A stretch of 64,000 nucleotides of DNA from an uncultured Acidobacteriota bacterium (GTDB lineage: Bacteria; Acidobacteriota; Vicinamibacteria; Vicinamibacterales; 2-12-FULL-66-21): NCBI GenBank assembly GCA_963695655.1, contig CAVOHG010000002.1, positions 305,117 to 369,116 on the forward strand, written 5' to 3'. How positions within the stretch are numbered: the stretch's first letter is position 1; each line of letters starts with the position of its first letter. The notes below the pieces were generated by a model. It saw only the letters and a program-made list of their open reading frames with translations, had not been told where the DNA came from and searched no databases. The position numbers and the translations under genes are program-made. Below, one piece after another: positions 3,986-57,426 of the stretch.

Positions 3986-3999
3986 GGGGTGATCATATC

Positions 4000-4221
4000 G
4001 GGATTGGGGATTGGGGATTAGGGATCAGGATCTCGCCTGCCACGCCGAAGCTCGCGAGAGCGAAGGCGGGGGACTCGGGGTTCGGGGTTCGGGGTTCGGG
4101 TTCGAGGCCGAGGTTCCGGCTCGGGAAGCTCTACCAACTGGCTACTAAAGCCGCTTCACTTGAAGCCTCGTCGAAGGATCCGGAAGGAGGAAACTGAGAG
4201 CTGAGAGCTGAGCACTGAGGG
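4000..4221. repeat. Composite heptamer region: GGGATTG (4000-4030), GGGGTTC (4068-4107), CTGAGAG (4191-4221)
   Basis: Reads gggattggggattggggattagggatcagga, then gggggactcggggttcggggttcggggttcgggttcgagg, then aaactgagagctgagagctgagcactgaggg. The G-rich strand is the + strand. Confidence 0.85.
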
Positions 4222-4225
4222 CTAT

Positions 4226-7595: not shown

Positions 7596-7615
7596 CTCCA
7601 CCTCGGAGGACGACC

Positions 7616-10972: not shown

Positions 10973-11035
10973 GATCCGGACACCCTGTCAGATTGGGACG
11001 GCCCCGCCGCCCTCGGAAAGTTGGAGGAAGACTTT

Positions 11036-19586: not shown

Positions 19587-19587
19587 C

Positions 19588-19671
19588 GGGACTCGGGACT
19601 CGGGATTCGGGATTCGGGATTCGGGATTCGATTCGGGTAGTTTCCAGTTTCCAGTTACCAGTATCCAGTTC
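19588..19671. repeat. Heptamer arrays GGGAYTC (19588-19637) and CCAGTTN (19638-19671)
   Basis: Reads gggactcgggactcgggattcgggattcgggattcgggattcgattcggg, then tagtttccagtttccagttaccagtatccagttc. It directly abuts the yjbQ start codon. Confidence 0.9.
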
Positions 19672-19698
19672 TTGGTTCCGGGGACTGTTCGCCGAGGA

Positions 19699-20878
19699 TC
19701 AGCCGTCGTGCTTGGGAGGGGCACTGGCAACTGGCGACTGGCGACTGGGTACTTCCAGGGCGAGCCCCGCCTCCGCGTTGAACTCCAGGCTCCCCGGGCC
19801 AGCGCTTCGGAACCGGCGCAGCGCGGCGGCGCCGATCATCGCCGCATTGTCGGTCGAGAGCGAGATCGGCGGGATGAAGACGGGGATGCCGTAGCGGATG
19901 CCCAGCGCCTCGGCATCGGCGCGCAAGCGGCTGTTGGCGGAAACACCGCCGGCAAGCCCCACGCTTCGTGCATTCAGCCAGCGTGCGGCTTCGAATGTTC
20001 GATCCAGCAGTGCGCCAACCACAGCCCGCTGAAAGCTGGCGCAGATGTCGGCGATGTCCTGTGGCGGGAGCAGCGCGCCGCCGTCGCCGGCAGCGCCGGC
20101 TTTGCCGCCCTGCTCGGCGCCGGTGCGTTCCCTCACCAGCCGCAGCACCGCGGTCTTCAGCCCGCTGAAGCTGAAATCGATCCGGCGCGCGATGTCGGCC
20201 GGCAGTACGCCGTCGCCGGTCGACTTCGGGGCATTTCGATCCGGCGTGCGTCAACCGCGTCACAGGAAAATCGTAGGCACGATCGTTGCCGGTCCGCGCC
20301 GCGCGATCGATCGCGGGCCCTCCCGGATAGCCGAGCCCGAGGAGCTTCGCGACCTTGTCGTATGCCTCGCCTGCCGCGTCGTCGCGTGTCCGCCCAATCA
20401 CCCGGTAGTGGCCGCGCTCCCGAATCAGGTACAGGCTCGTGTGCCCGCCCGAAACCACCAGGACCGCGGCAGGGAGCGGCATCTCGCCGTGCGCAAGCGT
20501 CAACGATTCGATGTGCCCGGCGAGATGATGAACCGGGACGACCGGAATGCCACGCGACCACGCGAGCGCCTTGGCGAACGCGACGCCAACGAGCAGCGAC
20601 CCCACCAGACCCGGGCCTTGTGTGACCGCCACGGCACCGATGTCGTCCAGCGTCACGCTTCCGACGGCGAGCGCCTCTTCGACGACGCCGCAGATGTCGC
20701 GCACGTGCTGGCGCGATGCGAGCTCGGGAACGACACCGCCCCACTCCCGGTGAATCGCCGCCTGCGATGCGACCACGTTCGAGCGCGCGCGCCACGGCCG
20801 TGCATCGTCGCCAGTCTCTTCGATGACGGCGGCGGCCGTTTCGTCGCACGACGTCTCGATGGCGAGGAGGTTCATCAC
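19699..20878 (-). CDS. tsaD: tRNA N6-adenosine threonylcarbamoyltransferase TsaD, frame disrupted near 20241
   Basis: [18 protein letters not shown]...[14 protein letters not shown]...HHLAGHIES...VSGGHT...[23 protein letters not shown], then ...[15 protein letters not shown]...[10 protein letters not shown]. One extra nt. The last 16 or so codons are encoded by CCAGTNG repeats. Confidence 0.9.
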
Positions 20879-24775: not shown

Positions 24776-26096
24776 TCAGGACGCCGCGCCGTGCTCGATG
24801 CGATCGACGATGAGTGGACGAAGTACCGCCGGCTCATCGCCGACCTGGACGGCGGATTCGAGCAGCGGCAGCGCTTCGCTGAGCCCGCGGCCGGCGCGGT
24901 GATGGATCATCAGCACGGCATCCCCCTCGGACGACCTGCGTGCCAGGCGGGCAGCGGACTTCGACGCCGACGCCCGGATCGATCGTGTCGGCGAGCGTCG
25001 CGCGGCCGGCGCCAAGGGCAACAGCGGCACGTCCGATCTGCTCCGCGTGGAGGCCCGTGACGTACCCTGCGCGGCGTGCCGGGACGATGTGCCGGTCGGG
25101 GGCGGCGGGCAGTCGATGGTAATCGTCGATCACCGCGGGATCGCCGCCCTGCCGGGTCACAATCCGCCGGAACAGGTCGAGCGCCGCGCCGGAGTCGAGT
25201 GCGGCGCGGATGCGCGCTTCGGCTGCGGGCTCGCTATCCTCGATCCGCGCCGTCATCAGCATGCGGGCCGCCAGCGTCACGGACAGTGCTTCCAGATCGG
25301 CGGGGCCTCGCCCTTTGAGCGTCTCGATCGACTCGATGACCTCCAGGGAGTTGCCGACCATCCGACCGAGCGGCGCGTCCATCGACGTGATCAGCGCCTC
25401 GGTGCGGACTCCGGAGGCGACACCGATGGCGACGAGCGACTCGGCGAGCTGTCGTGACGCTTCGGGCGTTTTCATGAACGCGCCGACGCCGGTCTTGACG
25501 TCGAGCACCAGCCCGCCGATCCCTTCCGCGATTTTCTTGCTCATGATCGATGCGCAGATGAGCGGGATGCTCTCGACCGTGCCGGTTACGTCGCGAAGGG
25601 CGTAGAGGATACGGTCCGCGGGTGCAATCTCCGAGGTCTGGCCGATGAGCGCGCATCCGACGTCGTGGAGCGCCGCGCGCAGTTCGTCGAGCGACAGTGC
25701 CGTGCGAAACCCCGGGATCGCCTCGAGCTTGTCGAGCGTGCCGCCGGTATGTCCGAGGCCGCGTCCGGACATCATCGGCACGTACGCGCCGCATGCCGCC
25801 GCCAGAGGCGCGAGAATCAACGACGTCTTGTCGCCGACGCCGCCGGTGCTGTGCTTATCGACAGGAATTCCGTCGACGCCGGGGTAGTCGACGCGGACAC
25901 CGGAGCGAACCATTGCGTCCGTGAGCGCCGCGGTCTCCGGCGCCGACATGCCGCGGATGAGAATGGCCATGAGCAGCGCCGACGCCTGGTAATCGGGAAA
26001 ACTGCCGTCGGTCACGCCGTGCACGAAGAAATCGATCTCCTCGCGGTCCAGGGTGCGGCCGTCCCGCTTGTGCCGTATGACGTCGACCGCGCGCAT
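24776..26096 (-). CDS. deoA: Thymidine/pyrimidine-nucleoside phosphorylase, frame disrupted in a C5 run at 24922-24926
   Basis: MRAVDVIRHKRDG...DKHSTGGVGDKTSL...MMSGRGLGHTGGTLDKLE...SIMSKK... Removing one C gives ...GVEVRCPPGTQVVRGDAVLMIHHRAGRG. Length is 3n+1. Confidence 0.9.
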
Positions 26097-26340
26097 GGAA
26101 GGGTGTGGGTGTGGACTGGAGACCGGAGCGAATCCGGCTAAATCCGGACACTACTATAGATTATGGCCGGGTTCTTCGAGAACCGGTGATTACCAGTTTG
26201 TTTTTGTCGCGGAGCCCGGAATCGTCTAATAACGTCTAACGGGCGAAAGGATCGACGACAGGAACCCATGCTGTCACTCGACGCCGTGGTGTGAACATCT
26301 GGCTCAGGCGCGCTGCGCAAACGCGAGAGGGCGATGAGTG

Positions 26341-26604
26341 TTACGTTCTCGGGCGCTGGTTCAGCCGTTCGGCCAACGCGCCAAATACGTTTGCGGAGTC
26401 TTCCAGAAGCGCATTCGTGCGCTTCAGCTGTGCGACTTCGGCTTCCAAGTGATGGCAGTCGGGCGCAATCGGAAGGACATCATGGCGCGGTGATGTTGGA
26501 GCACCAGCCCGCCGACGCTCTTCGGTGTGAGCACCAGCCCGTTCAGGATGGCTAACTCGCCTGCGGTCGGGAATTGACGGCCACTCCGAGTGATTGGCGT
26601 CCAT
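26341..26604 (-). CDS. Small leucine-zipper protein, possibly an IS3-family OrfA-like remnant
   Basis: Strong RBS (acaggaggtgttatATG). The C-terminus LEAEVAQLKRTNALLEDSANVFGALAERLNQRP resembles the LRRANEILKAASAFFAAELDRP zipper of IS3 OrfA proteins (from memory). No OrfB follows. Confidence 0.35.
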   Translation of the reverse strand: MDANHSEWPSIPDRRRVSHPERAGAHTEERRRAGAPTSPRHDVLPIAPDCHHLEAEVAQLKRTNALLEDSANVFGALAERLNQRPRT

Positions 26605-26720
26605 ATAACACCTCCTGTGGAAGCGCCGGGTGAGGAACCCGACAGATGGCGGGAGGCTCAAATGGGCAGCGCGGACGAGAACTTACGACACGTTGCTGGT
26701 GTGGTCGGACCTGGACGCGT

Positions 26721-27458
26721 TTACTTGGTTGGAGCGGCGCGGTCAGACGCCAGCTGAGGGTTTCCCGCGCGGCGGCGACGCATGGCGAGCCACCCGAGGC
26801 CGCTCCCGAGCAGGATCAGCGTGGTCGGCTCCGGCACCGGGGCGAGCGAGTATTGATAGTCGAAGAACGGACGGTTCGGCTCGAAAAATATCACCCGCCC
26901 GGTGCCGGTGCCATAGAGCGAGTGCCGGAATAGAAGGGCGCCGGTGTCGATGTCGAAGCCGCTGAGTGTGCCGGAGAATGTCACCGGCGCCCGGCCGCCG
27001 ATCAGCCCGAGAGGATCACCCTCAAGCACGGCTGTCCCGCCCGTGAACAGGAAGTCACCTGCAATGTCATAAGCCTGTCCGTCACCAAAACTGCCCGCGA
27101 AGCCACGGCCACGGGTGAATGTGGCCCGCGTCGTCAGGCTGTACGGAGCGCCGGCCTTCAAGGGTTGTGGAGTGGCGGGCCGGCTGAGCTCAAGCCCACC
27201 GCGGTTACCGAGGATCGGGATGGTCTCGAGCGCCTCGCCGGAAAATTTCGGGAGTCCCGCGCCGACGAGAGAGAAGACGAGCTCGTTGATTGGGCCTTGG
27301 TAAGACGGAAAGTCGCCGCCTGCGGAATCGATGTTGACCGCCCCCGAGACTCTGATCGGCTCGGCGTGGGCGGGCACAGCCGCGAGCGCCTGGGCGATGA
27401 CGATTCCTGTTGTGAGAAAGAGAGCAACCCGTGATGGCAGTTTCGTTGAAAGCTTCAA
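26721..27458 (-). CDS. PEP-CTERM sorting-domain secreted protein
   Basis: TTG start after a gagagg RBS. Signal peptide (M)KLSTKLPSRVALFLTTGIVIAQALAAVPAHA. C-terminal VPEPTTLILLGSGLGWLAMRRRR motif. Confidence 0.75.
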   Translation of the reverse strand: MKLSTKLPSRVALFLTTGIVIAQALAAVPAHAEPIRVSGAVNIDSAGGDFPSYQGPINELVFSLVGAGLPKFSGEALETIPILGNRGGLELSRPATPQPLKAGAPYSLTTRATFTRGRGFAGSFGDGQAYDIAGDFLFTGGTAVLEGDPLGLIGGRAPVTFSGTLSGFDIDTGALLFRHSLYGTGTGRVIFFEPNRPFFDYQYSLAPVPEPTTLILLGSGLGWLAMRRRRAGNPQLASDRAAPTK

Positions 27459-27619
27459 GTAGACCCTCTCGCAAATTCCTCTGAATGGGTGACGCGGGCG
27501 GCTAGCACGCAAGAAAGAGACCGATGTCGTGGTCAGGCGAACTCCAAACACATGTTGCCCGGCCATATGGCGGCTACTTGAGCGGGACAAACACGCGTAT
27601 TCCGGCAGTGAGCACTACT

Positions 27620-28162
27620 TCAGACGGTCAGGGCTGGCCGATTCCGGCGGCGCCGCACGCTCCCAAGGAGCGCCAGCCCGGTCCCCCCAAGGACCAGAGA
27701 AGCAGGTTCAGGAACGGGATTCGAAAACTCGGCTGCGTGGCTGTCTCGGTTGATGTCAAGAAGCGAAACCGAAAACGGCGTGCAACACCCCGGGATGATG
27801 AGGTCGAACGCAATTAGATTCGTCGTCCCAACGCTGAACGTCGGCAACTGGTTGACGAACGTCGTGTCACCCGATGCAGGGAAGGACCCGGAAAGCTGGA
27901 ACAGCCCGTCACGAGCCCGGGCTCCAATCGTGTTCCTAAAACCAGTCGTCACGGGTGTCACTGCAATGAGAAACGCAATGAACTCCTGATTTAGGTTCGG
28001 CGTGAAATCGATCGTGCGTGTCCCGAACGTGACGACGGGGTCCACGTTCAGATCGGTGCTGACCGGGGACTCGAGCGGCAGTGGAATCTGAATCGGATCA
28101 GCTCCGGCAGAGCCGGCGGCCAGCAGGAAACCAATGAACATCAATGCGGCCAAGTCTCTCAT
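27620..28162 (-). CDS. PEP-CTERM sorting-domain secreted protein
   Basis: Signal peptide MRDLAALMFIGFLLAAGSAGA. C-terminal VPEPASLVLGGTGLALLGSVRRRR. Confidence 0.8.
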   Translation of the reverse strand: MRDLAALMFIGFLLAAGSAGADPIQIPLPLESPVSTDLNVDPVVTFGTRTIDFTPNLNQEFIAFLIAVTPVTTGFRNTIGARARDGLFQLSGSFPASGDTTFVNQLPTFSVGTTNLIAFDLIIPGCCTPFSVSLLDINRDSHAAEFSNPVPEPASLVLGGTGLALLGSVRRRRNRPALTV

Positions 28163-29009
28163 GGCTGTTCCTCCTGAAAACGCCGCGGCATTACCGCCAG
28201 CGCGACCGATGACCCGGTTCGATCACGGCTTCGACTGTCCGGATTCGGCAACTGTGAGCCGACTGTGAGCAAAAGGTAACCCGTTCTTACCGCCTGCAGG
28301 CGGCTGTGGGGGCAAGCCTGCAATTCCAGCGCCTCGCATTGGACGCTCGAGGTGGCGTAGCGTTTGCGGTAACGAAGCAAAGGTGATCAAACCTCGTCGA
28401 GCGCACGGCGATCCATCACGACCTCAGGAAGGCATCAGGCACGCTCTTCGCGATAGCGACGAAAGCGAGGCGTACTTCATCGGGCGGACCTTGGCAATCG
28501 CCCGGTCACGTGCGCCGTTTCCAGTATCCACATTCAGTTCCTCAGCGAGACGCACGCGACCTGCACGGCCTCGTACGCCTGCGGTGTCCCCTGGCCACTC
28601 GGCGCCGGCGCTCCTGCGACGACCTCCACCCTGTCCCTGGACGTGTTGAAGGAAGGCGGAGCGTGACAGATGGTGGAATCGGCTAGGGATCAGGTGTTCG
28701 TGCTCGATGTCCGGCGAAGAAATAATCAGGTCAACACAGCCTCACCCTGGGTTGTTCACCCTTGCGTCGGGTACGCAAATTACGATTCCGGCCAGTTGCG
28801 TAGACAGCGCTTGACGGCACGGCTACGGGATGCCGTCGCGTCCCGCCGCTTCCACGAGCAGCGGGGTTGTGTTCGAAACGGGAGCCACCAGGACAAGCGA
28901 CACCACCATCCAAACCAAATGCGCTGCGGATTGACCTGATGACTTTCGACTGCGGAAGTACTGTTTGGATCACCAGCGGGAGTCTGTGAGTAAGCTCTCG
29001 GCCAGAGAC

Positions 29010-29606
29010 ATGACGGCCGACCAGAATCACCGCACAATTCGCAGCAAGTGCGCGAAGGACTGGCCAGACGACCTCCCAATGCGCAACTTCTGCGAGGAGC
29101 GCGGCCACGCATGACCACCTGGCGAAGTTCCGCGCCTCGACGGTCGGCAAGCTGCAGACGAGGCTCGCCGAAGACCGTGCCGCCGCACTGAAGCCGAAGC
29201 AGACTCCGGACCCCGCAATGGCGACGGTGCGCGAACTGCGAAATCGGGAGATGCGCGATCAGTTGCGCACACTCGACAAGGTGCAGCTACAGGTTCGCAT
29301 TCGCCAAGCCGTGAGCGACGGAGCGTCGACGGATTTGTCGACGCACTGGAAGGTGCGCCCGCGGGTTTCGAGATCGCGCCGAAGCATCTCGTCGAAGAGG
29401 CGCGAGCCGCAATCGCAGAACGCGATCATCCCGAGCTCGGCGAACTCGCAACGCTCATGCGTCAGGACCAGTTCCTGATCAACAGCGCGACGCAGGCCGT
29501 AAAAGCCGCTGTCGAAGACGCCGGTCCCGCACCAGACGCACCGGTCGCGGACACGCGCCAGCCGTACACGGTTAGTGGCACTCCCCTGCCGGGTGCGAAG
29601 GCGTAG
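29010..29606 (+). CDS. Hypothetical island protein, apparently two compensating frame disruptions (about 29105, 29320)
   Basis: MTADQNHRTIRSKCAKDWPDDLPMRNFCEER / HDHLAKFRASTVGKLQTRLAEDR...VQLQVRIRQAVSDG / VDGFVDALEGAPAGFEIAPKHLVEEARAAIAERDHPELGELATLMRQDQFLINSATQAV... read as protein-like segments in frames 0, 1 and 0. No family recognised. Confidence 0.3.
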
Positions 29607-29777
29607 CGAAATAAAACCAGCGGAGGGTAGGCCGGGCGGTCAGGGTTGCTGCCTCGAATCACCGTCGGTCCCTCTGCGACGACGAGAGTCGTTACCAGCT
29701 GATGGTGAACACCCTGCAGGGAGCGTGGCGTCCCCTGTGTCAGCCGTCTGTCGCCCGAGGCGACAGCGGCACGTCAC

Positions 29778-30164
29778 CTAGCACGGCGTGAGCGAGCAGA
29801 TCACTTTCACGAGATCCGGCGGCATGAGCGGCACGAGAGCGACGTGGTCAAAGATTCCTGCGTCGATCTTCAAACGGAACGACACGAGCGCGATCAGCAC
29901 GTCGCACCGTGTTCTCGCTCGAAGCGTCAGGGCGATATGTTCCGCGTCATCGTGAGGGTGGAGTTGAACAACCACGACGTCTGCGGCACGTGGCGGCACG
30001 TTTTCGAGAGCGCCGGCGACATGAACCTCGAACCCGTCCGCCCGGATGATCTGCGCGTACAGCTCACGCGTGTCCGCGTGAGCGGAGAGCAGAACGACAC
30101 GTACGGTAATGGGGTCCACAGGGAGATCACCGCTGAGCTTAGCTCCGAGCGGAGCGAGGCGCAA
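29778..30164 (-). CDS. Receiver-like (CheY-fold) protein lacking the phospho-acceptor Asp
   Basis: VRVVLLSAHADTRELYAQIIRADGFEVHVAG...AADVVVVQLHPHDD...DVLIALVS...PLMPPDL follows the REC strand/helix pattern, but has SAH in place of the acidic pair and Q in place of the D in the VVVVQL strand. Confidence 0.45.
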   Translation of the reverse strand: MRLAPLGAKLSGDLPVDPITVRVVLLSAHADTRELYAQIIRADGFEVHVAGALENVPPRAADVVVVQLHPHDDAEHIALTLRARTRCDVLIALVSFRLKIDAGIFDHVALVPLMPPDLVKVICSLTPC

Positions 30165-30523
30165 GCATCAGGCGTTCTATCCACCCTTAGCCGTGCATCA
30201 GCGACGCAGGAGTTAGCCCTAAACACTTGCAAACAACGCATTTACCGCGTGTCTCAACTGTTGTCTCGCCCATAAGTCTCATTAGACAGTCCGGGCATGG
30301 ACAAAAACGCGATTCGGACGCTTCGCACGCATCTCTGGTACATCGCGGACACCGCGACCATGGCGTAACGCGTCAAGGCGGATAGCGAGGACCTCTGTGA
30401 TCTGCTCGACGACATCGACACGCACCTCCAGGCCACCATCGAACTGGTCAATCGGCTGCGCGGCGTCGAATGCGAGGACCGGGATGTCTAGGCGCGTTTA
30501 CCTCATCAACGTCGGGAGGGGTT

Positions 30524-31698
30524 ATGCGCGGTAGTTTGCACAAGGCATCGATGAAACGCGGCAGCCTGCCGAAAGGCCAGTTCCGCTGGAACATCATGCT
30601 GTCGCTCGGTCGCGCCGAGGATGGCAAGTACAAACAGAAGTGCATCCGCTTCTGCGGCACGCGCAGGCAGGCGGAGCAGAAACTAGTCGAGCTGACTGGC
30701 GAGATTCACCGGGGCGAATTCATCGAGCCATCAAAGATCACGGTCGGTGAGTACTTGGACACGTGGCTTGAGATGGCGATCAAGCCGCCGCAGAAAGCCC
30801 AGAGTACGGTACAGACTCCTACGAGACGATCGTCCGTCTCCACATAAAGCCGGCGCTCGGACATCTGCCGCTGCAGGCGCTCACGCCGTTGCACATCCAG
30901 CGTTACTACGCAGATTTGAAAATGGCTCCGGGAAGTGCGTGCGTTCACCACGCCGTTCTGAGCCACGCGCTTAAGTCCGCCGTGAACGCCGGCCACCTGC
31001 GAACGAACGCAGCGTCACGCGTCTCGAACAAGCCACGGCTGCAGCACAGCGAAGACGTTTTGAACAACGTCTGGAACGCGGACGAGGCTCGCAAGTTCCT
31101 AGCCTACGTGCAGCAGAACTGCAGCACGCAGGATGCCGCGTTTTACACCGTCGCGCTTGAGAGCGGATGCCGAAAGTGCGAACTGCTCGGACTGCAGTGG
31201 AAGGATGTGAGCGGTTCGTCGCTACGCGTCGAGCGGCAGTTGACTGGCCCGGAACCGTCGTTCTCCATGCCGAAGAGTCGCCGAGGCCGCTCGCTCGACC
31301 TCTCGTCGCAGACGCTCAAACTGCTGGCGCAGCACAAAAGCGAGCAGGCCGAGTTGAAGATGAAGAACCGTCACCACTACCAGGACAACGGACTAATCTT
31401 CGCGCGCGAGTGGGGGCAGCAGAACGTCCTTCACGCGCTCGGAACGCCGCTCGGGATCGCACGCATCAACGAAGGCCTGAATCGACTGTGCAAGGCCGCC
31501 GATGTGAAGTGCATCACCGTGCACGGCCTGCGGCACACCTGCGCGACGTTGTTGCTCTCTCAGGGCGCACAGCCGCACCTCGTGCAACAACGGCTCGGCC
31601 ACAAGAACATCATGATTACGCTGCAGATCTACGGGCACGTGTTGCCTTCGATGCAGCACGAGGCGGCCAACAAACTTGGAAACCTGCTGCACGGCTAG
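30524..31698 (+). CDS. Tyrosine site-specific recombinase (phage integrase family), frame disrupted near 30817
   Basis: SAM-like N-domain ...TVGEYLDTWLEMAIKP.../...YETIVRLHIKPALGHLPLQALTPLHIQRYY. Catalytic residues in ...ALESGCRKCELLGLQW (R), VHGLRHTCATLL (H-x-x-R), LGHKNIMITLQIYGHV (H...Y). Length is 3n+2. Confidence 0.85.
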
Positions 31699-31990
31699 TG
31701 CACTCACAACCGTACGCTCTCCGCGCCAATGGCTGCCAGAAGTCGTATTTGGAGTAGTGGTCAGTTTGGTTTTGCGCTCGATCATGCAAACCGCACAGGT
31801 CTGTTCCAGCCCTTCCGCAAGCGCCTAATCATCGAAGTGTCACGTGTGCTGCTTGCGAGTCGCGGTATCGTGTCCTAGCCACGACTTGCGCGAGCAGGCT
31901 GTGGCTACTTCAGGTTCACACGTCCGACCTGCCACCCAGCATTCTTGACGGTCCGCGCTCCCATTCCCTGAGCTGGAATGGCCGCGCAGG

Positions 31991-32194
31991 GTGATTCTCA
32001 TGCCCGATCCTAGCTTACCGCGGGGCTGTCCCGCATGCGGTGCGAAGCTGACGTACCTGCTGACGATTGCCGATACGCACATCTACTCATGTCTGAGAGA
32101 CGGATTGGCGGAGCTTCCACCGGCTGGGATCATTCGTCTTGTAGCCCGCGAAGAACTCGAAGCCCGAATCGACCGTGGCGATCCCATCAGCTGA
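31991..32194 (+). CDS. Possible small Cys-containing (zinc-ribbon-like) protein
   Basis: 67-aa ORF with CPACGAKL...YSC. No RBS checked and no family recognised. Confidence 0.2.
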   Translation: MILMPDPSLPRGCPACGAKLTYLLTIADTHIYSCLRDGLAELPPAGIIRLVAREELEARIDRGDPIS

Positions 32195-33033
32195 ATCTTG
32201 GTCTGGCCGACGATGTGCTATTCCGGTTCGAATGGGCAACCGTCGCAATTCCGGCCTCTCGATTTTTGACGCCGCGATGGCTCGGCTAAAGAGTGCCGAC
32301 GAAGCACTCAGGATGAGCAGCGTACTGGTGGCGGAGTCGAAGATTACGGCTGCGGTCGCGGTGTTGGACACTCGGCAGCGCGCGCAGAGTCGGCTGACCG
32401 AACGCCGTCCGTCAGAGTGACGCTGGAGGACATCACGCGATTTGGCGCAACGAGAAGAACGGTCTGCGGTACTCATGCAGCTCATCGAACGGACTGTGCA
32501 GCTTTTGGTGAGCTGGAGACCGGACCTCGGCACGAACTCAGGAAAGCTAAGAGGGAGCGGACTATATTATGGCCGGGATCGGTGAACAGTGCCGTTCGCC
32601 CCGCGTTTCGCAGGCCGCGGGCTGCGGCCTCCATACTCGTCGTTTACAGGCCAGCGTACGGAACAGCCCTTCACGTCGGCTCGGACGGATTCGTCAGTCC
32701 GACGCCGAAGTTGTAATCAGTCGTGTGGTCACAGTTCGGCGGACTGGCCGGCGCACAGGACCTCCCGCCAAGGTCGGTCGAGCGACGGCCCGTCGCAAAC
32801 ACGCCGGTTTGCGCATAACTGCACAGCCAGACTGAGTAGCACGACAATTGAACTCTGTCCCACGAAGCTCGAGTCAGGTCCGACCGCTATAGATTAGAAT
32901 TACCAGCGACCGCCACAGCCAAAATGTCCGAGGTGATGCCGTTTCCGCCCGGGATCTTGCGCCGCGCCTCACGTGGTCCGACGTGCACCCGCCGACCTGC
33001 GCCGACGCCGCACCGGATGGCTGAACGGTCCCG

Positions 33034-35265
33034 GTGGCTCCGCTGGCATTGATGACAACGCCAGAGCCTTCTCCACCGCAGCTCTCGCCCGAAGCCGCCG
33101 CGCGGTTCGCGGAATTCGCCCGCGCCTGCAAGTCGGCGGCGCGCGCCGTGGCGCTGTACCCCGGCAGCCATCCCGCCATTGGCACCTCCCTTGGACGCCT
33201 GGCCGAGGCCACGACCAGACTGAGCGAGGCCGGGCCGTTCCGTCTGCAGGTCAGGGCCGGGGCCCTGCTGCTCGATGGCTCTGTCTCTCCCAAGCCGGAC
33301 CCGGCACTCGCCGAGCTCGCTGAGGTCCTCCACCGGCACCTGATCGGCGCCCTGACGGTGAACGCCGGCGCGGACGCCGCCTCCTGGCAGATTCTCCTGC
33401 TGCTCCTGGCGCGCACGCCCGAGGAGGTGCGCGCCGATGGTGGCATCTCGCGTCTCTGGACCACGGCCGGGGGACCCAGTCTCGAGATCATCGAGATTGA
33501 CTATGCCGAGGTACTGCGTGAGAAGCAGGGGCTGGCCGCGACCATCGACCAGATCCTCGCCGCAGCGCTGGCCGGTCCGCAGATCGAGTTGGACGACGCG
33601 GCGGCGGATGCGTTGCTGCAGTTGATTGGCGACCCGGCCAAGCTCCAGGAGCTGATGGCGCAGCTCGAAGAGCGGACCGCCGGGCAGGGCCCGGATCTGA
33701 AGACGGCCGCCTTCCTCAACCTGCTGCGCGGGCTCGCCGAGCACCTCGCGCGCACCGGCCCCGACAAGCTGGATGCGATGTTCAGGCAGATGGGGCAGGC
33801 GGCCGGGCGGTTGAGCGCCGAGGACATGCTGTCGCTGCTCGCCAAGCGCGAACGACCGGAGGCGATGGCCGGCACGATCAACGTGGTCGGCGCGACGACG
33901 GAACGGATGTCGGACGCCTCGGTGGCGCAATTCGTCGCCGGGTCAGTCGTTGCCGAGGGCGGCGCCACGGACCGTCTCGCGCAGGCATTCCAGGCGCTCG
34001 TCCCCGAGCGCGATCGCCAGCGGCAGCTCCTCGCGCTGGCCGAAACCGAGGTGGCCGCTTCCGAGGTCGGTGACGACCCCGAACTGTGGGGCCGCGTCGA
34101 AGGCATGCTGACGTCCTACTCGGACGACAGTTTCGTCTCGAACGACTACGGCCGCGAGCTCGCCAGCGCGCGCAACCGCGCCGTGACCGTCGAGTCGACG
34201 AGCGACGATCCACCCGAACGCGTCACGGCATGGCTTGCCACCGTGGGCGACGCGGCACTCCGCGGGCTCGATCACCAGCTGCTCATCGACCTCCTCGTCA
34301 TCGAGACCGATCCGCTGCGATGGCGCGATGTCGCCCAGACCGTCGCCGCGCACGCGGACGATCTCGTTCGCGTCGGCTACTTCGATCACGCGTGGCAGCT
34401 CGTCGAAGCGGTGCTGGACCAGGGCATCGCCGATCCGGGGCGGCAGCCGCACGCGCGCGCGGCACTCGAGCAATTTGGCCGCGGCTCGATGATGAAGCAT
34501 GTTGCCGCGCACCTGCGCAGTGTCGACGACCAGGGCTACGAGCGCTTCAAGCGGATCTGCCACGCGATGGGCACGGCCGTGGTCGCCCCCCTGGCCGAAG
34601 TGCTCTCCAGCGAGCAGGACGCCCGCTCCCGTCGTCGGCTTCGCGAAGTGCTCCTTGGATTCGGCGCGAGCGGCCGCGAGGCCGTGCAGCAGTTGATGAA
34701 TGCGCCGAACTGGGAGGTGCGACGCACGGCGGCATACCTCCTGCGTGAATTCGGCGGCACCGAAGGGTTGAAGGAGCTGGTGCCGCTCTTGACCGACGCC
34801 GAGCCGCTGGTCCGTCGCGAGGCCGTCCAGGGACTCGCGCTGAACGGCAGCGACGAAGCGTCGGCGCTGCTGCTCACGGCACTGACGACGAGCACGGGCA
34901 AGGCGCAACAAACGCTGGCCAGCGATGTCATGGGGCTCCGCGACAGGCGCGCGGTGCCGTTCTTTGCGTTCGTGCTGCGGCGCATGGAGCCAGGCGCGCT
35001 GCCGCAGGTGTACGCAGCCGCGATCGAGTCGATTGCCGCAATCGGTCCGGCGGCGGGCACCGAAGCCGTTGCCGGTCTCGAGTCCGCCTTCAAGCACGGG
35101 CAGTGGTGGGCGCCGGTGCGCACCAGGCGCCGCCGCACGACCATCGCGGTCGCGCTTCGAAAGATAGGAACGCCGGAAGCCATCGAAGCACTCCGCACGG
35201 CGGCATCGAGCGGACCGCGCGGCGTGCGCGTCGCGGCTCGCAGTCAGCTGAGCGGTCTGATCTGA
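33034..35265 (+). CDS. Large HEAT-repeat protein (about 480-aa unknown N-terminal region plus C-terminal HEAT/PBS-lyase-like repeats)
   Basis: Intact 743 aa. C-terminal repeats ...NAPNWEVRRTAAYLLREFGGTEGLKELVPLLTDAEPLVRREAVQGLALNGSDEA...IGTPEAIEALRTAASSGPRGVRVAA. The start could be ATG 33052. Confidence 0.75.
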   Translation: MAPLALMTTPEPSPPQLSPEAAARFAEFARACKSAARAVALYPGSHPAIGTSLGRLAEATTRLSEAGPFRLQVRAGALLLDGSVSPKPDPALAELAEVLHRHLIGALTVNAGADAASWQILLLLLARTPEEVRADGGISRLWTTAGGPSLEIIEIDYAEVLREKQGLAATIDQILAAALAGPQIELDDAAADALLQLIGDPAKLQELMAQLEERTAGQGPDLKTAAFLNLLRGLAEHLARTGPDKLDAMFRQMGQAAGRLSAEDMLSLLAKRERPEAMAGTINVVGATTERMSDASVAQFVAGSVVAEGGATDRLAQAFQALVPERDRQRQLLALAETEVAASEVGDDPELWGRVEGMLTSYSDDSFVSNDYGRELASARNRAVTVESTSDDPPERVTAWLATVGDAALRGLDHQLLIDLLVIETDPLRWRDVAQTVAAHADDLVRVGYFDHAWQLVEAVLDQGIADPGRQPHARAALEQFGRGSMMKHVAAHLRSVDDQGYERFKRICHAMGTAVVAPLAEVLSSEQDARSRRRLREVLLGFGASGREAVQQLMNAPNWEVRRTAAYLLREFGGTEGLKELVPLLTDAEPLVRREAVQGLALNGSDEASALLLTALTTSTGKAQQTLASDVMGLRDRRAVPFFAFVLRRMEPGALPQVYAAAIESIAAIGPAAGTEAVAGLESAFKHGQWWAPVRTRRRRTTIAVALRKIGTPEAIEALRTAASSGPRGVRVAARSQLSGLI

Positions 35266-35296
35266 AGGGCCTCAGCTGACGCTTCGGCCCAGGATC

Positions 35297-35441
35297 GGGA
35301 CTCGGGACTCGGGACTCGGGATCCGGGGTTCGGGGTTCGGGGTTCGGGGTTCGAGGTTCGGGTCGGGGTTCGGGGTTCCGGGTTCGGGGTTCCGGGTTCG
35401 AGGTTCGGGGTTCGGGGTTCGGGGTTCGGGGTTCGAGGTTC
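35297..35441 (+). repeat. 21-unit heptamer array GGGACTC/GGGGTTC (11 perfect GGGGTTC units)
   Basis: Counted unit by unit. Two runs of four consecutive GGGGTTC (35325-35352 and 35407-35434) satisfy the G4-N3 x4 quadruplex motif. The G-rich strand is the + strand, which is the sense strand of both flanking genes. Confidence 0.95.
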
Positions 35442-35479
35442 CGTTCGGCGGATGCGGGCGGGTTCGCGAGCGAGCTGCG

Positions 35480-35573
35480 GTAGCTTCCGCCTTCAGGCGG
35501 AAGACCTGCGGTGCGTAGCTTCCGCCTTCAGGGGAAAGACCTGCGGTGCGTAGCTTCCGCCTTTAGGCGGAAG
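35480..35573. repeat. REP-like hairpin element, 3 copies at 35-nt period
   Basis: gtagcttccgccttcaggcggaag at 35480-35503, with variants at 35515-38 and 35550-73. Each has the stem cttccgcc/ggcggaag. The same element occurs at 55421-55588. Confidence 0.9.
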
Positions 35574-35582
35574 ACCTGGTAA

Positions 35583-35631
35583 CTGGTAGCTGGAGACTGA
35601 TAGCTGATAGCTGAGAACTGATAGCTAACAG
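35583..35631. repeat. Heptamer array CTGRNAG (7 units)
   Basis: Reads ctggtag ctggaga ctgatag ctgatag ctgagaa ctgatag ctaacag. It ends 17 nt before the HD-GYP start codon. Confidence 0.9.
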
Positions 35632-35648
35632 CGATTGCCGCCGAATTT

Positions 35649-37028
35649 ATGTCCGACCTGCAGACGCGTATCGGCCAGTACGACGAGTTGCTCCGGCGCT
35701 TCGCCTCCGGCGTGCGTGCGGCGCAGCTCTATGCCCCCGACCACCCGCTCGTCGGGCGAAATGTCGAAGGGCTGCTGGCGGTGCTCAAGGTGCTCCACGC
35801 GGCGCAGCCCTCAGTTGCGATTGGGATCGTGGGCACGCAGCTCATCGTCGCGGACACGCCCATGTCCAAAGCGAGCCTCGGCATGGCCGAGCTCGTCAAG
35901 CGGCTGAAGGACCACCTGATCGAACGCGTGTCGTTCGAGCGCGGCGTGACCGAGCAGGAGATTGCGCCGTTCATCCTCACCCTCGCCGCCCTCGGCGGCA
36001 AGGCGGAGGTCCCCGAGAGCGCGTGGCAGTTTGCGCACATCCGCGTCGGCCGCATCACCGCCGAAGAGCGCCGTACCGATGGGATCGGCAGCGACATGGC
36101 CGCCATCCGCAAGCTCTATTCGAGCGCGGTGTCGGTCGCGCAGGTCGCGTGGGAGAGCGCCGAGATCGAGGGCGCCCCCGATCTCCCGAACGCTCTCCAG
36201 GCGATCGAGGGTCTCGCCGACGCCGTCACCCAGAATCGCACCGCGCTCGTGGCGCTCACGGCGATGCGCAATTACGACAACTACACCTTCACCCACATGG
36301 TGAACGTGTCGATCCTGACGATGGGCCAGGCGCGCGCGCTCGGCATCGAGGGCCGGCTGCTGCGCGAGTTCGGCCTGTCCGCCCTGATGCACGACATCGG
36401 CAAGGTCCGCACGCCGAAAGAAATCCTGAACAAGCCCGACAAGCTGACCGACGACGAATTCACGATCATGCGCAGGCACACGGTCGACGGCGCGGAGATC
36501 CTGCGGCGCACGCCGGAGATGCCGATTCTTGCGCCGGTCGTCGCCTTCGAGCACCACCTGCGGCAGGACGGCACCGGTTATCCGGTGACCGCGAAACGCG
36601 AGGGCCTCAATCTCGGCACGATGCTCTGCGGCATCTCCGACGTCTACGATGCGATGCGCTCGCAGCGTGCGTACCAGCAGGCGTTCCCGACCGATCGCAT
36701 CCTTGCCGTGCTCAAACGCAACGACGGCACCCAGTTCGATCAGAACCTGGTCAGACGATTCGTTCAGCTGCTCGGCATCTACCCGCCGGGCAACCTGGTG
36801 AGACTGACGACCGGAGAAGTTGCGGTCGTCACGGAGGTGCACGCCCCGGACCCGCACCGCCCCCGCGTCCGCGTGCTCTACGCCACCGATGGCACACGGC
36901 TCGACCTGCCCTACGACCGCAACTTGTGGGAGTCGGCTCGCGCCGGGGACGAGGCGCCCTCAATTGTTGCGCCGGTCGATCCCGCCGAGTTCGGCATCGA
37001 CCCGCTCAATCACATGGAGACGCGGTAG
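35649..37028 (+). CDS. HD-GYP domain c-di-GMP phosphodiesterase-type protein
   Basis: Intact 459 aa. ...THMVNVSILTMGQARALG...SALMHDIGKVRTP...DEFTIMRRHTVDGAEIL...FEHHLRQDGTGYPV...ISDVYDAMRSQRAYQ (HD...HHE..GYP motifs). Confidence 0.9.
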   Translation: MSDLQTRIGQYDELLRRFASGVRAAQLYAPDHPLVGRNVEGLLAVLKVLHAAQPSVAIGIVGTQLIVADTPMSKASLGMAELVKRLKDHLIERVSFERGVTEQEIAPFILTLAALGGKAEVPESAWQFAHIRVGRITAEERRTDGIGSDMAAIRKLYSSAVSVAQVAWESAEIEGAPDLPNALQAIEGLADAVTQNRTALVALTAMRNYDNYTFTHMVNVSILTMGQARALGIEGRLLREFGLSALMHDIGKVRTPKEILNKPDKLTDDEFTIMRRHTVDGAEILRRTPEMPILAPVVAFEHHLRQDGTGYPVTAKREGLNLGTMLCGISDVYDAMRSQRAYQQAFPTDRILAVLKRNDGTQFDQNLVRRFVQLLGIYPPGNLVRLTTGEVAVVTEVHAPDPHRPRVRVLYATDGTRLDLPYDRNLWESARAGDEAPSIVAPVDPAEFGIDPLNHMETR

Positions 37029-38442: not shown

Positions 38443-38650
38443 GGGATTCGGGACTAGGGATTGGGGATTCGGGCTCGGGGTTCGGGGTTCGGGGTTCCGG
38501 GCTCGGGGCTCGTGGCTCGAGGCTGGAAGCTCGGAAACTGGCCGCTGAGGTGTCTGAGAGCTGAAGTCTGATAGCTGAAACTGATTGCTGATTGCTGATT
38601 GCTGATTGCTGATTGCTGATTGCTGATAGCTGAAGTCTGATTGCTGATGT
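38443..38650. repeat. Composite heptamer region: GGGRYTC/GGGGTTC (38443-38525), then CTGANNG with 6 perfect CTGATTG (38545-38650)
   Basis: ctgattg x6 at 38581-38622, followed by ctgatag ctgaagt ctgattg ctgatgt. The ATG (38647) of the next gene lies in the last unit. Confidence 0.95.
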
Positions 38651-39092: not shown

Positions 39093-39698
39093 ATGGCAAC
39101 GTCTAAACAGACGATGGCTCCATCCAGGAGCCCCGAAGTTGCCGGACGCGCGGCCGACATGGCGCTCGTGGAACGGTGCCGTGCGGGGGACCTCGCCGCG
39201 TTCGAGGAGTTGTATGCTGCCCACGCCGGGAAGCTGTTCAGCGTGGCGTGCCGGATGCTTGGCAACCAGTCGGATGCCGAAGACATCCTGCAGGAGATTT
39301 TCCTGTCGGCGCACCGCAAGCTCGACGGCTTTCGCGGCGACGCGGCGCTCGGCACGTGGCTGTACCGGCTGGCGATGAACCAGTGCCTCGACCATCTGAG
39401 GAGCCGGTCGACTCGCACCAACCAGCTCACCGACGTGCTGGACGACGAGCCGGCTCTCTACGAGGCGGGCGGTGGTGGGCTCGCGGAACAGACCGTCGCG
39501 AAGATGGACATCGAACGTGCGCTCGCGCAGCTCCCGGCCGGCTGCCGGGCGGCGTTCGTGCTGCACGACGTCGAAGGTCTGGAGCACCGCGAGGTCGCCG
39601 ATGCGCTCGGGATCGCGGAAGGCACCTCGAAGTCGCAGGTGCACAAGGCAAGGCTGCGGCTGCGTGCGCTGCTCGGCGCGCGAGGCCGCGCAACGTAG
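39093..39698 (+). CDS. ECF-type RNA polymerase sigma-70 factor
   Basis: Region 2 ...AEDILQEIFLSAHRKLDGFRGDAALGTWLYRLAMNQCLDHLR. Region 4 ...AFVLHDVEGLEHREVADALGIAEGTSKSQVHKARLRL. Confidence 0.9.
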   Translation: MATSKQTMAPSRSPEVAGRAADMALVERCRAGDLAAFEELYAAHAGKLFSVACRMLGNQSDAEDILQEIFLSAHRKLDGFRGDAALGTWLYRLAMNQCLDHLRSRSTRTNQLTDVLDDEPALYEAGGGGLAEQTVAKMDIERALAQLPAGCRAAFVLHDVEGLEHREVADALGIAEGTSKSQVHKARLRLRALLGARGRAT

Positions 39699-39746
39699 CA
39701 CGTGCACGTAGCACGTAGCACGTAGCACGTAGCACGTAGCACGTGA
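39695..39746. repeat. Heptamer array GTAGCAC (about 7 units)
   Basis: Reads gtagcac gtgcac gtagcac x5 gtgag. The sigma factor stop codon TAG (39696-98) is part of the first unit. Confidence 0.9.
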
Positions 39747-39756
39747 GTAAAACGAC

Positions 39757-41690: not shown

Positions 41691-41735
41691 CACGTCGCAC
41701 GTAGGACGTGGCACGTAGCACGTAGCACGTATGAC
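41691..41735. repeat. Heptamer array GCACGTN (about 6 units)
   Basis: Reads cacgtcgcacgtaggacgtggcacgtagcacgtagcacgtatgac. Confidence 0.85.
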
Positions 41736-41979
41736 AGCCAGCCCGACTGTCGCATTTCGCAACGCCGCTCCCACGCGAGCCGAACGCGTCGACTCCCCTG
41801 GCGCATGAAAACGGCAGCGTTTTACCGCAAATCGATGGCACCCTGATTGCTTTTCTCACTTGCACGACGCCAGTCTGCCCTGTTGCACCTATAATTGCCG
41901 GGGCAGGAGGACACTTCCTCCGGGTTCGGGACTTACCCGGGCGGATTCCAGATTCGACCCTGTCAGGAGAATTGTCGTT

Positions 41980-47415: not shown

Positions 47416-47570
47416 TGGAACCGGGCCTCGAACCATCGACACCTGCAACCTAGAACCGATACCTAGAACGTAGAACCCGTAGAGCGTAAAACGTGACCTA
47501 GAACTCGTAAAACCCTTAGCACCTAAAACCCGACCTAGAACTCCTATAACCCCTAGAACCTAAAACCCTT
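47416..47570. repeat. Degenerate TAGAACN/TAAAACN repeat tract inside the mre-mrd operon
   Basis: Reads ...aacctagaaccgatacctagaacgtagaacccgtagagcgtaaaacgtgacctagaactcgtaaaacccttagcacctaaaacccgacctagaactcctataacccctagaacctaaaaccc. Confidence 0.8.
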
Positions 47571-48983: not shown

Positions 48984-49138
48984 CTCCAGTTTCCAGCTAA
49001 CCAGTAACCAGTTTCCAGTAACCAGAATCCAGTTCCCAGGCAGTCAGCTTGGTGGCGATCCGCGGGATCCGACGTGCCGTGGATCACGCCGGATCCGCTC
49101 GCGGAGAGCACTGGTTACTGGCGACTGGAGACTGGCGA

Positions 49139-49140
<2 letters not shown>
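48984..49140. repeat. Inverted heptamer blocks CCAGTNN (48984-49040) and CTGGNNA (49109-49140) flanking a GGATCC-containing palindromic centre
   Basis: Reads ctccagtttccagctaaccagtaaccagtttccagtaaccagaatccagttcccagg, then cactggttactggcgactggagactggcgact. It lies between mreB and mreC. Confidence 0.85.
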
Positions 49141-55337: not shown

Positions 55338-55348
55338 GCTCGCAGCAA

Positions 55349-55404
55349 CTCAGCTATCAGCTATCAGCCGTCAGCAATCAGCTTTCAGTAGTCAGCAATC
55401 AGTT
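55349..55404. repeat. Heptamer array NTCAGCN (reverse orientation of CTGANNG, 8 units)
   Basis: Reads ctcagct atcagct atcagcc gtcagca atcagct ttcagta gtcagca atcagtt. Confidence 0.9.
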
Positions 55405-55420
55405 GGGAACTGCGAGGTTT

Positions 55421-55588
55421 GTAGCTTCCGCCTTCAGGCGGAAGTTGTTAGGGCCAGCTTGCCGCGCCGAAGCCTCAGGAGTAGCTTCCGCCTTCAGGCG
55501 GAAGTTGTTAGGGCCAGCTTGCGCCGAAGCTCCCAGGAGTAGCTTCCGCCTTCAGGTTCCCAGGCGTAGCTTCCGCCTTCAGGCGGAA
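55421..55588. repeat. REP-like hairpin element, 4 copies (one truncated)
   Basis: gtagcttccgccttcaggcggaag at 55421-44, 55481-504 and 55565-88, with a truncated copy at 55539-56. The first two copies are part of a unit of about 60 nt that includes ttgttagggccagcttgc. Confidence 0.9.
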
Positions 55589-55592
55589 GTGC

Positions 55593-57159: not shown

Positions 57160-57342
57160 CAGGTTTCCTCCTGAGAGCGGTTCGGGTCGGGAGTTGTCGA
57201 GATAGAGGTTAGACCGGATACGCCCGCGGGCGGCGGGACGTTACACTTCGGCTGGAAAATTCGAGCGGGTGACCGGACTCGACGCCACACGCCGGTTTGT
57301 CTATAATTAGGGTTTCCAGTTCGAACGGTCTCCCCTTCTTGT

Positions 57343-57426
57343 GCGGAAGTGGCGGAACTGGCAGACGCGCAAGCCTCAGGAGCTTGTTACCGCAAGGTAG
57401 TGGAGGTTCAAATCCTCTCTTCCGCA
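57343..57426 (+). tRNA. tRNA-Leu (anticodon CAG), class II with a long variable arm
   Basis: Folded by hand. Acceptor GCGGAAG/CTTCCGC. D stem GCG/CGC. Anticodon stem CAAGC/GCTTG with loop CTCAGGA. Variable arm TACC-GCAA-GGTA. T arm GGAGG-TTCAAAT-CCTCT. Discriminator A. Confidence 0.92.

Follow-up and report, generated by a model that had tools for sequence, protein, structure and literature searches.

The 383-nt spacer between a HEAT-repeat gene and an HD-GYP gene (positions 35266-35648 of the window, the whole 64-kb stretch of DNA that was analysed) is probably a lineage-specific build-up of three types of intergenic repeat, apparently widespread in this genome, at an ancestrally tight HEAT/HD-GYP junction, forming a transcribed spacer in which repeat orientation is filtered by the gene ends. 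By sequence reading and Tandem Repeats Finder (TRF), nearly all of it consists of repeats, arranged as a G-rich block (G block), a hairpin block and a block of CTGA-type heptamers (CTGA block), as a preliminary description made from the sequence alone had proposed; Pfam matches and the HD and GYP residues also bore out its naming of the two flanking genes. The junction comprises the following features:

33034..35265, + strand: upstream gene, HEAT-repeat protein of 743 aa with stop codon TGA at 35263-35265; Pfam HEAT_2, E=6e-16
35243..35280, + strand: 10-bp inverted repeat GTCAGCTGAG / CTCAGCTGAC, arms 100% complementary, with the HEAT stop codon inside the loop
35295..35441, + strand: G block, 21 tandem heptamers on the coding strand, beginning about 29 nt past the HEAT stop codon; TRF period 7, 18-20 copies
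35325..35352, + strand: first perfect (GGGGTTC)4, canonical G4N3; match to the putative quadruplex sequence (PQS) regular expression at 35325-35349; RNA quadruplex (rG4) in the minimum free energy (MFE) structure computed with quadruplexes
35407..35434, + strand: second perfect (GGGGTTC)4; PQS match at 35407-35431; rG4 in the same MFE structure
35480..35578, + strand: three head-to-tail GTAG-tagged repetitive extragenic palindromes (REPs) of 35 nt each; TRF period 35, 2.8 copies, 92%
35576..35631, + strand: CTGA block, CTGGTAA CTGGTAG CTGGAGA CTGATAG CTGATAG CTGAGAA CTGATAG CTAACAG; TRF periods 7 and 21
35632..35651, + strand: 17-nt leader CGATTGCCGCCGAATTT, then the HD-GYP ATG; no Shine-Dalgarno-like GGAGG
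35649..37028, + strand: downstream gene, HD-GYP domain protein of 459 aa; Pfam HD_5, E=6e-20; HD at residue 248, GYP at residue 310

Comparisons were made across the window, 80 related loci (L001-L080) and 120 metagenome contigs carrying (GGGGTTC)3. The window holds 21 period-7 arrays, compared to none in each of 10 Markov shuffles, and only 0-2 arrays at periods of 5, 6, 8, 9 or 10, so that the excess is specific to period 7; once gene ends had been corrected, the heptamer arrays of the window were found at gene borders.

The 21 heptamers of the G block and its two perfect runs lie exactly where they had first been reported. The units include GGGACTC (x3), GGGATCC, GGGGTTC (x4), GAGGTTC, CGGGTTC and others, with a single 5-nt GGGTC; G tracts of at least three number 18, and none of the frames contains a stop codon. 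The earlier identification of a canonical quadruplex motif held up in quadruplex prediction: G4Hunter scores over the block had a mean of 1.38 and a maximum of 2.44, four canonical motifs were counted, and ViennaRNA with G-quadruplex (G4) energies placed two rG4s, one on each perfect run. Nine canonical G4 motifs were found in the window, on the + strand and all within heptamer arrays, versus 2.85 expected with both strands summed. On these predictions, the G block is a strong candidate for quadruplex formation. Its RNA also folds with z=-7.6 via G-U and G-C self-pairing into a long G-U hairpin. The term 'telomere-like', which had been applied to the motifs, is apt as a resemblance and not in a telomeric meaning; a telomere or linear-replicon reading was rejected, as the arrays are internal, located between ordinary chromosomal genes and present at many sites. 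The gene content is that of an ordinary chromosome, with mreBCD-PBP2-RodA-RNase G, SurA, an S49 peptidase, thiolases, ABC transporters, a hybrid histidine kinase, and an extracytoplasmic function (ECF) sigma factor with its anti-sigma factor. The most telomere-like sequence of the window is a separate, C-rich non-heptamer block of period 9/37 (CCTAGAACC / CTAAAACCC) at the mreD|PBP2 junction (47447-47568), the G-richer strand of which (GGGTTTTAGG...) is the - strand, i.e. the sense strand of the operon.

A comparable repeat class is known from Xanthomonas (GGGAATC) and Nostoc (GGGGA(C/T)T), where intergenic arrays of 2-26 units form G4s in vitro, lie 28 nt from the ORF at their 5' end and 160 nt from that at their 3' end irrespective of open reading frame (ORF) orientation, frequently occur as convergent inverted pairs, vary between relatives, show no leading- or lagging-strand preference in Xanthomonas, and in one instance sit inside an operon, between pecE and pecF of the pec operon of Nostoc (Rehm et al., 2015; PMC4692102). 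The arrays described here share with that class the tandem heptamer made of a G3-4 tract and a spacer of 3-4 nt, the almost wholly intergenic location, the range of 2 to more than 20 units, the proximity of the 5' end of the G strand to an ORF (25 vs 143 nt, compared to 28 vs 160 nt in that class), the convergent pairs, the variation in length and sequence at the same junction among relatives, and the occurrence within operons. They differ in the host (Acidobacteriota, Vicinamibacterales), in the units (GGGGTTC, GGGACTC, GGGATTC), in an island that unites the array with REPs and another type of heptamer, and in that their G4 is predicted. By unit structure and placement rule alike, the G block is best assigned to the quadruplex-forming GGGNATC/GGGNNTC heptamer class, whose units are nearly identical to those found here. 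Cyanobacterial STRR sequences are likewise tandem heptamer families in intergenic DNA, with a different phylum and GC content; the STRR1 unit, which we take to be CCCCAGT (complement ACTGGGG), is near to the GGGGACT and ACTGGNN units found here.

The three 35-nt hairpins had been called REP-like, which the period-35 repeat and the GT[AG]G tag bear out; because they combine this tag with a palindrome, we classify them by sequence as GTAG-tagged REPs. The repeated unit, GTAGCTTCCGCCTTCAGGCGGAAGACCTGCGGTGC, is built from GTAG, CTTCCGCC-TTCA-GGCGGAAG with its 8-bp stem, and ACCTGCGGTGC. The palindromes occupy 35484-35503, 35519-35538 (the middle copy, with a degenerate stem) and 35554-35573, and the block folds with z=-3.2. 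The 24-nt consensus element GT[AG]G-CTTCCGSC-TTCA-GSCGGAAG has 11 matches in the window versus 0 expected; six intact copies are distributed over two sites, accompanied by a degenerate seventh at 35518. At the second site (55421-55589), the element has the same chromosome orientation (+) as at 35.5 kb, though the genes there are on the opposite strand. Outside the window, eight copies were found in three of the 80 related loci (L015, L027, L034), in head-to-tail and mixed clusters and next to a protein of just 70-78% identity. GTAG or GTGG stands directly 5' of the stem in 13 of 14 aligned copies from four genomes, and one compensatory exchange of a C-G for a G-C pair was seen among the copies. 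Scans of the window genes turned up no RAYT (Y1 transposase), with no search aimed specifically at RAYT.

According to Di Nocera et al. (2013; PMC3733652), REPs are characterised by a palindrome that bears GTAG on one side; they are found singly, as dimers or in head-to-tail tandem clusters, and often lie between genes of the same direction. The hairpins share with GTAG REPs and bacterial interspersed mosaic elements (BIMEs; Nunvar et al., 2010, PMC2817692; PMC3733652) an imperfect palindrome of 20 nt with GT[AG]G at one end, an intergenic position between co-directional genes, a tandem arrangement with flanking pieces, mixed orientations within a cluster (L027), and a sequence kept across genomes in which the intergenic DNA is otherwise diverged. 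Unlike the known GTAG REPs, of which the 2013 survey lists none from Acidobacteria (PMC3733652), they have a stem, CTTCCGSC/GSCGGAAG, that is similar to the CCGGAAG heptamers of this genome in inverted form. The stem part CTTCCGG/CCGGAAG (35484-35573) corresponds to the inverted CCGGAAG/CTGGAAG heptamer that is arrayed at 2719-2747 and in L002 at 5878-5992, a likeness suggestive of some connection between REPs and the heptamer families. As a separate observation, (ACGTAGC)7.6 at 39693-39748 occupies the entire 58-nt gap between the genes for the ECF sigma factor and its zf-HC2 anti-sigma factor, and a second, CACGTAG array follows at 41691-41736, 116 nt past a DUF4097 gene; these units carry the REP tag GTAG every 7 nt, and the sigma|anti-sigma junctions of L027 and L034 contain GTAG REPs instead.

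The CTGA block is composed of seven CTGRNAR units (35576-35624) and a degenerate eighth, CTAACAG, which ends at 35631. The preliminary count of seven CTGRNAG units is thus right in number, and the gap of 17 nt to the HD-GYP start that went with it holds for the eighth unit, the seventh being 24 nt away from the ATG at 35649. With 46% GC compared to 65% in the window, the block contains stop codons in all three frames, the last one in frame with HD-GYP at 35622-35624, and RNA of the block together with the start region shows no excess of structure over shuffled sequence (z=-0.23). The start itself is supported by the N-terminus MSDL, which is kept in L001-L008. CTGA-type arrays also end near the starts at 38647 (where the array runs into the ATG), 202, 2568(-), 48981(-) and 55292(-), and in the related loci the CTGA strand has its 3' end at a median of 20 nt from an ORF and its 5' end at 195 nt. 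In the reverse orientation, such arrays let ORFs continue: the thiolase (-) ORF at 2719-2802 and the TsaD (-) ORF at 19699-19831 overrun the end of their Pfam domain by 40-50 codons, through stop-free arrays.

Among known repeats, the block is closest in kind to the intergenic TAACTGA direct repeats of Beggiatoaceae, cyanobacteria and Bacteroidetes (MacGregor, 2015; PMC4679880). Common to both are the CTGA core (TAACTGA becomes CTGATAA when started at its CTGA, and the unit here is CTGATAG), the forward orientation just before start codons that have no recognisable Shine-Dalgarno sequence, stop codons in three frames forward and none in reverse, and 'split' sets of related heptamers. Distinguishing features are the CTGRNNN variants (CTGATAG, CTGACAG, CTGAGAG, CTGATTG, CTGGTAA, CTGGAAG, ACTGGCG), the high-GC genome, and arrays that also occur reverse-oriented after stop codons and in inverted pairs. 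The units are one or two changes away from CTGATAA and strict membership fails; in sequence, the block resembles the TAACTGA repeats as a relative outside that family proper.

The history of the junction was read from its orthologues. HD-GYP orthologues were found solely in metagenome-assembled genomes (MAGs) of Vicinamibacterales / Acidobacteriota subgroup 6, the best with 94% and 92% identity, and in most related loci the HEAT orthologue lies directly upstream. The two genes are spaced by 0-15 nt in at least 30 orthologous loci (e.g. TGAcgccATG in L004, L005 and L007), and by a heptamer-filled spacer of 49-268 nt in L001, L002, L003, L010, L011, L012, L016, L026, L027, L034, L056 and L062; the 383 nt of the window make its junction the longest of this kind among the loci compared. 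Examples are:

L001 junction, 100 nt: GGGATTG, then GGGACTG, then GTAACTG
L002 junction, 268 nt: G-rich units, then CTGATAG / CCGGAAG
L003 junction, 66 nt: C-rich complement of GAACCCC type, with opposite polarity
L010, L012, L016, L026, L056 and L062 junctions: GGGATTA, GTGATTA or CTGATTG up to the ATG

Units, lengths and even polarity thus vary among close relatives at this junction, and no sequence conservation was seen; judged by sequence, this is the behaviour of fast-evolving simple-sequence repeats and not of a conserved element. In total, 95 arrays were counted in 953 kb of window and related loci, with none in 38 of the 80 loci and densities ranging from 0 to 3.7 per 10 kb (3.3 in the window). 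From this distribution, the 0-15-nt junction appears to be ancestral and its inflation confined to a subclade. Within L001 (5902-5991), one in-register array drifts from GGGATTG over GGGACTG and GAAACTG to GTAACTG, and G-rich and CTGR-type heptamers can accordingly be regarded as the ends of a single mutational continuum. An exact-sequence look-up of the HD-GYP protein, made for same-species assemblies that might reveal copy-number variation, returned no record.

The orientation of the arrays follows the ends of the adjoining genes. Single G-run arrays lie at a median of 25 nt from the ORF at their 5' end and 143 nt from that at their 3' end (36:8, p=2.5e-5), a placement rule that was reproduced in 45 further sites beyond the four G blocks of the window. 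Where arrays on opposite strands neighbour each other, 18 pairs are ordered G-then-C (convergent) and one C-then-G (p=8e-5; related and metagenome loci); the island under study has no C-rich partner array. With gene ends checked against Pfam, all four G blocks of the window have their 5' end at an ORF end, irrespective of the orientation of that ORF. The three other G blocks and a REP-bearing island are:

3996..4223, + strand: GGGATTG and GGGGTTC arrays at 3996-4031 and 4067-4107, followed by CTGAGAG units at 4191-4223; the G block begins 10 nt before a thiolase (-) start at 3985, on the non-coding strand, with the thiolase N-terminus Pfam-checked
19587..19754, + strand: GGGAYTC array, then an inverted ACTGG-type pair (19638-19670, 19718-19754); the GGGAYTC array abuts the UPF0047 (-) ATG at 19586 (0 nt), on the non-coding strand, with the start Pfam-checked
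38443..38646, + strand: G block (38443-38524), then about ten CTGATTG running into the ATG at 38647; the G block starts 11 nt past the stop at 38431, and the gene at 38647 is MGMT-like (Pfam DNA_binding_1 from residue 4)
55343..55589, - strand: array of CTGATAG type at 55343-55402 (- strand reading), which precedes the S49 peptidase start and adjoins three intact and one truncated GTAG REP

The recurrence of the order G-rich block, then CTGA block, noted in the preliminary description, was seen again at 3996-4223 and 38443-38646. Expressed for the sense strand, the rule is that G-run arrays come after stop codons and C-run arrays before start codons; in an automatic test it held in 8/8 cases in the window, 12/15 in L001-L080 (p=0.035) and 33/39 in the metagenome loci (p=1.4e-5). 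Within the window it extends to the second heptamer type: CTGR-type arrays (CTGATAG, CTGGAAG, CTGGTTA) end at 35649 and at the five other starts given above, and their YCAG-type complements begin after the stops at 1381, 1521-, ~2797-, 8375, 8510-, 49139- and 53547- and after TsaD. The manual sense-strand count is about 18/18, most gene ends being Pfam-checked, in a single window that also generated the hypothesis. Exceptions to the rule are GGGATTA and GTGATTA arrays that abut starts on the sense strand in L010, L016, L026, L056 and L062. As a related observation, sense-strand GGGATTA or GGGATTC reaches the HD-GYP start in L016, L026, L056, L062, L009 and L011 (e.g. GATTAGGGATTCCAATG); AGGGA may serve as a weak Shine-Dalgarno sequence there. 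Two broader formulations were rejected. Three-frame stops on the inbound strand of all arrays gave 11 vs 17 and were confounded by ORF calls that run through stop-free arrays, and we retained this property for the CTGA block only; a generally C-rich inbound strand, counted over all array types in the Vicinamibacterales loci, was a weak trend (29:17, p=0.10).

Seen as part of such a gene-end-filtered build-up, the order of the island would correspond to the convergent architecture of the G/C pairs, with each arm directed toward its own ORF end, and its G block and CTGA block would be arms that have diverged and lost their pairing with each other. An intercistronic hairpin joining stop and start, which fits the mreB|mreC junction, was rejected for this island, where the G block and the CTGA block are not complementary. 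Inverted heptamer pairs with arms 20-120 nt apart and outer ends at gene ends occur elsewhere in the window, e.g. at mreB|mreC, and could form long imperfect hairpins; they comprise 1387-1417 with 1483-1523, 2571-2603 with 2719-2747, 8382-8475 with 8496-8531, 19638-19670 with 19718-19754, and 48993-49033 with 49110-49140.

In the mechanism that we favour, heptamer arrays would arise and change via replication slippage and REPs would spread via a REP-type mechanism, while selection would filter orientation: G-rich RNA beside a start codon, prone to form G4s or to mimic a Shine-Dalgarno sequence, would be costly, and G-rich structured RNA past a stop codon would be tolerated or useful, perhaps along with selection against C-rich, Rho-loading RNA directly behind stop codons. 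The island would probably be transcribed within a bicistronic HEAT/HD-GYP mRNA and would break the ancestral translational coupling of the two genes. In enteric bacteria, REPs stabilise or attenuate upstream messages. Here, an rG4 or G-U hairpin followed by REP stem-loops behind the HEAT cistron might lead to its protection or attenuation, and the HD-GYP start would be provided with an unstructured leader that has no Shine-Dalgarno sequence and stops in three frames; the outcome would be an altered HEAT:HD-GYP expression ratio. The inverted repeat around the HEAT stop codon is a further structural element, with a predicted RNA fold of -26.2 kcal/mol (z=-2.0). Rfam searches of the whole window (gathering score) and of the island (E≤1) gave no meaningful match, the sole hit being mir-769 at chance level (23 bits vs a gathering score of 57).

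Several points weigh against this account. We infer co-transcription, the RNA structure in vivo and the effect on the HEAT:HD-GYP ratio from the sequence, and a selective filter is only one possibility among the accounts of the orientation rule; for the GGGNATC class itself, Rehm et al. (PMC4692102) identified no function. The long G-U hairpin of the G block can compete with G4 formation. An internal promoter is possible: a sigma-70 promoter scan of 34900-35900 found none in the spacer, using a consensus that may not fit acidobacterial promoters. Gene calls were home-made and are approximate, and the CTGA-type half of the orientation rule draws mostly on the window, with four classifiable cases outside it, of which two were consistent. 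Lastly, exact G-run lengths may be wrong. Compared to Pfam profiles, genes are split or partial at 202-1381, 1521-2568, 2641-3985, 4477-8278, 11189-11884 and 19699-20250; two thiolases and an isocitrate/isopropylmalate dehydrogenase are split across two frames, a TonB-dependent-receptor-like barrel is distributed over two ORFs, and TsaD, an aldehyde dehydrogenase and an ABC ATPase are present as fragments. This points to an indel-rich (possibly long-read) assembly or to real pseudogenes; with so many genes split, the assembly is probably indel-rich, and exact G-run lengths should therefore not be over-read.

The island might alternatively be neutral junk, in which slippage-prone heptamers and selfish REPs accumulated in tolerant intergenic DNA with neither an effect on the genes nor selection on orientation. 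We consider this possible, if on the unlikely side. It would be consistent with the missing sequence conservation across orthologous junctions, the majority of relatives without a spacer, the 38 of 80 related loci without arrays, the ordinary housekeeping genes nearby and the absence of a function in the study of Rehm et al. The gene-end polarity (36:8, 18:1 and 33/39), however, needs selection or a directional mechanism; the arrays are found within a few nucleotides of start and stop codons and not scattered through the spacers, and 383 nt of G4- and hairpin-prone RNA in a coupled junction would be unlikely to remain without effect.

The opposite extension, that the arrays constitute a cross-phylum system marking gene boundaries with fixed polarity in Xanthomonas, cyanobacteria, Beggiatoaceae and Acidobacteriota, is doubtful. 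In such a system, RNA leaving a gene would carry a G-run/YCAG array prone to G4 or hairpin formation, and RNA entering a gene would carry an unstructured, C-rich or stop-rich C-run/CTGR array, similar to a site of Rho loading or ribosome release; prompt initiation of translation would rescue sense transcripts, and antisense or read-in transcripts would be silenced. Paired arms would juxtapose the upstream stop and the downstream start. The arrays might owe their origin or upkeep to a binding protein dedicated to them, or to a RAYT-like enzyme that works on units containing GTAG.

It is very unlikely that the island splits the operon, with the G block and REPs terminating transcription after HEAT and HD-GYP being expressed from its own distal promoter. 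The predicted structures are very stable (z=-7.6 for the G block, z=-3.2 for the REPs), and G-rich RNA of the non-template strand favours R-loops and G4s, which would suit termination; a role of REPs in transcription termination has also been proposed (PMC3733652). Yet an intrinsic-terminator scan of 34900-35900 found no terminator-like site in the spacer (35266-35648), where no U tract follows a stem and no T run stands behind the REP stems, and no sigma-70-like promoter was found. The CTGA block abuts the start codon and leaves no room for a typical promoter and leader. Comparable repeat blocks are moreover present in the mreB|mreC and mreD|PBP2 junctions, inside mreBCD-mrdAB, and in the ECF sigma|anti-sigma junction, all with downstream genes that still need to be expressed.

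The preliminary description had concluded from its four G blocks, which do all lie on the + strand whatever the gene orientation, that their polarity is linked to the chromosome strand and hence to replication. The corresponding reading, in which G blocks are quadruplex elements with the G strand fixed relative to the leading or lagging strand and act on DNA during replication, is highly improbable. In its favour, the nine array G4 motifs share the + strand with the four heptamer G blocks despite differing gene orientation, neighbouring single G sites are co-oriented 8:3 per contig, and the six intact REPs at two sites have the same chromosome orientation with their flanking genes opposed. Four out of four, however, corresponds to a two-sided p=0.125, co-orientation drops to 5:3 without the window, and the non-heptamer block at 47447-47568 is opposite. 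The orientation of each block is predicted by the adjoining ORF end; convergent G/C pairs bring the two orientations to within 10-110 nt of each other; at the orthologous junction of L003 the C-rich strand is found instead, and L062 has both orientations 110 nt apart. The Xanthomonas class shows no leading/lagging preference, and when the GC skew at third codon positions (GC3) was split by gene strand, the replication component in the window was 0.002 and the cumulative skew flat, with no replication direction readable. The four G blocks are all on the + strand because the 5' end of each abuts an ORF end; their polarity follows the ORF-end rule, and no evidence in these data links it to replication.

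That an error-prone assembly created or inflated the repeats, as the many frameshift-split genes and irregular units such as GGGTC or GGGGTTCC GGGTTC (possible homopolymer errors) might suggest, is hardly credible, given the same repeat types in independent MAGs built from short reads (the k141 assemblies L001 and L002) and in at least 120 metagenome contigs from many projects, the respect of the arrays for gene boundaries and their specificity for period 7.

In the island as we interpret it, each component is of a kind already known from other bacteria, in a phylum from which none appears to have been described; the literature collection that was searched contained no relevant paper on such heptamers in Acidobacteria or Vicinamibacter. 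Several bacterial phyla are rich in intergenic heptamer repeats. The Vicinamibacterales (Acidobacteriota subgroup 6), a widespread and largely uncultured soil lineage, have the same kinds of repeat with the same placement rule, which brings the number of phyla to three or four and lends weight to a general mechanism or selective filter over a quirk of Xanthomonas. The HEAT/HD-GYP junction constitutes a natural experiment, with a series ranging from 4-nt junctions over short arrays and opposite polarity to the 383-nt composite, and the effect of the islands on operon expression is therefore directly testable. For annotation, ORF calls are inflated at gene ends because the arrays are free of stop codons in one orientation.

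Further repeats and regions of the window are unrelated to the HEAT/HD-GYP junction. An inverted pair with a period of about 9-10 nt instead of 7 (11035-11193; about nine AGGTTCTRC, then about five GCAGAACCY) is bounded by the histidine-kinase gene start and the aldehyde-dehydrogenase gene stop. The region 26000-33000 is lower in GC (0.61) and scores poorly as coding sequence; it holds a phage-integrase-family gene (30889-31698) as well as one for a PEP-CTERM protein, and may be an integrated element; no tRNA gene lies beside it, the only one in the window being tRNA-Leu(CAG) at 57342-57427. Within the multihaem cytochrome c-like gene at 55633-57159 (-), an in-frame 9-nt repeat of CCGCCGGGA type (56199-56328) probably encodes a Pro/Gly-rich linker.

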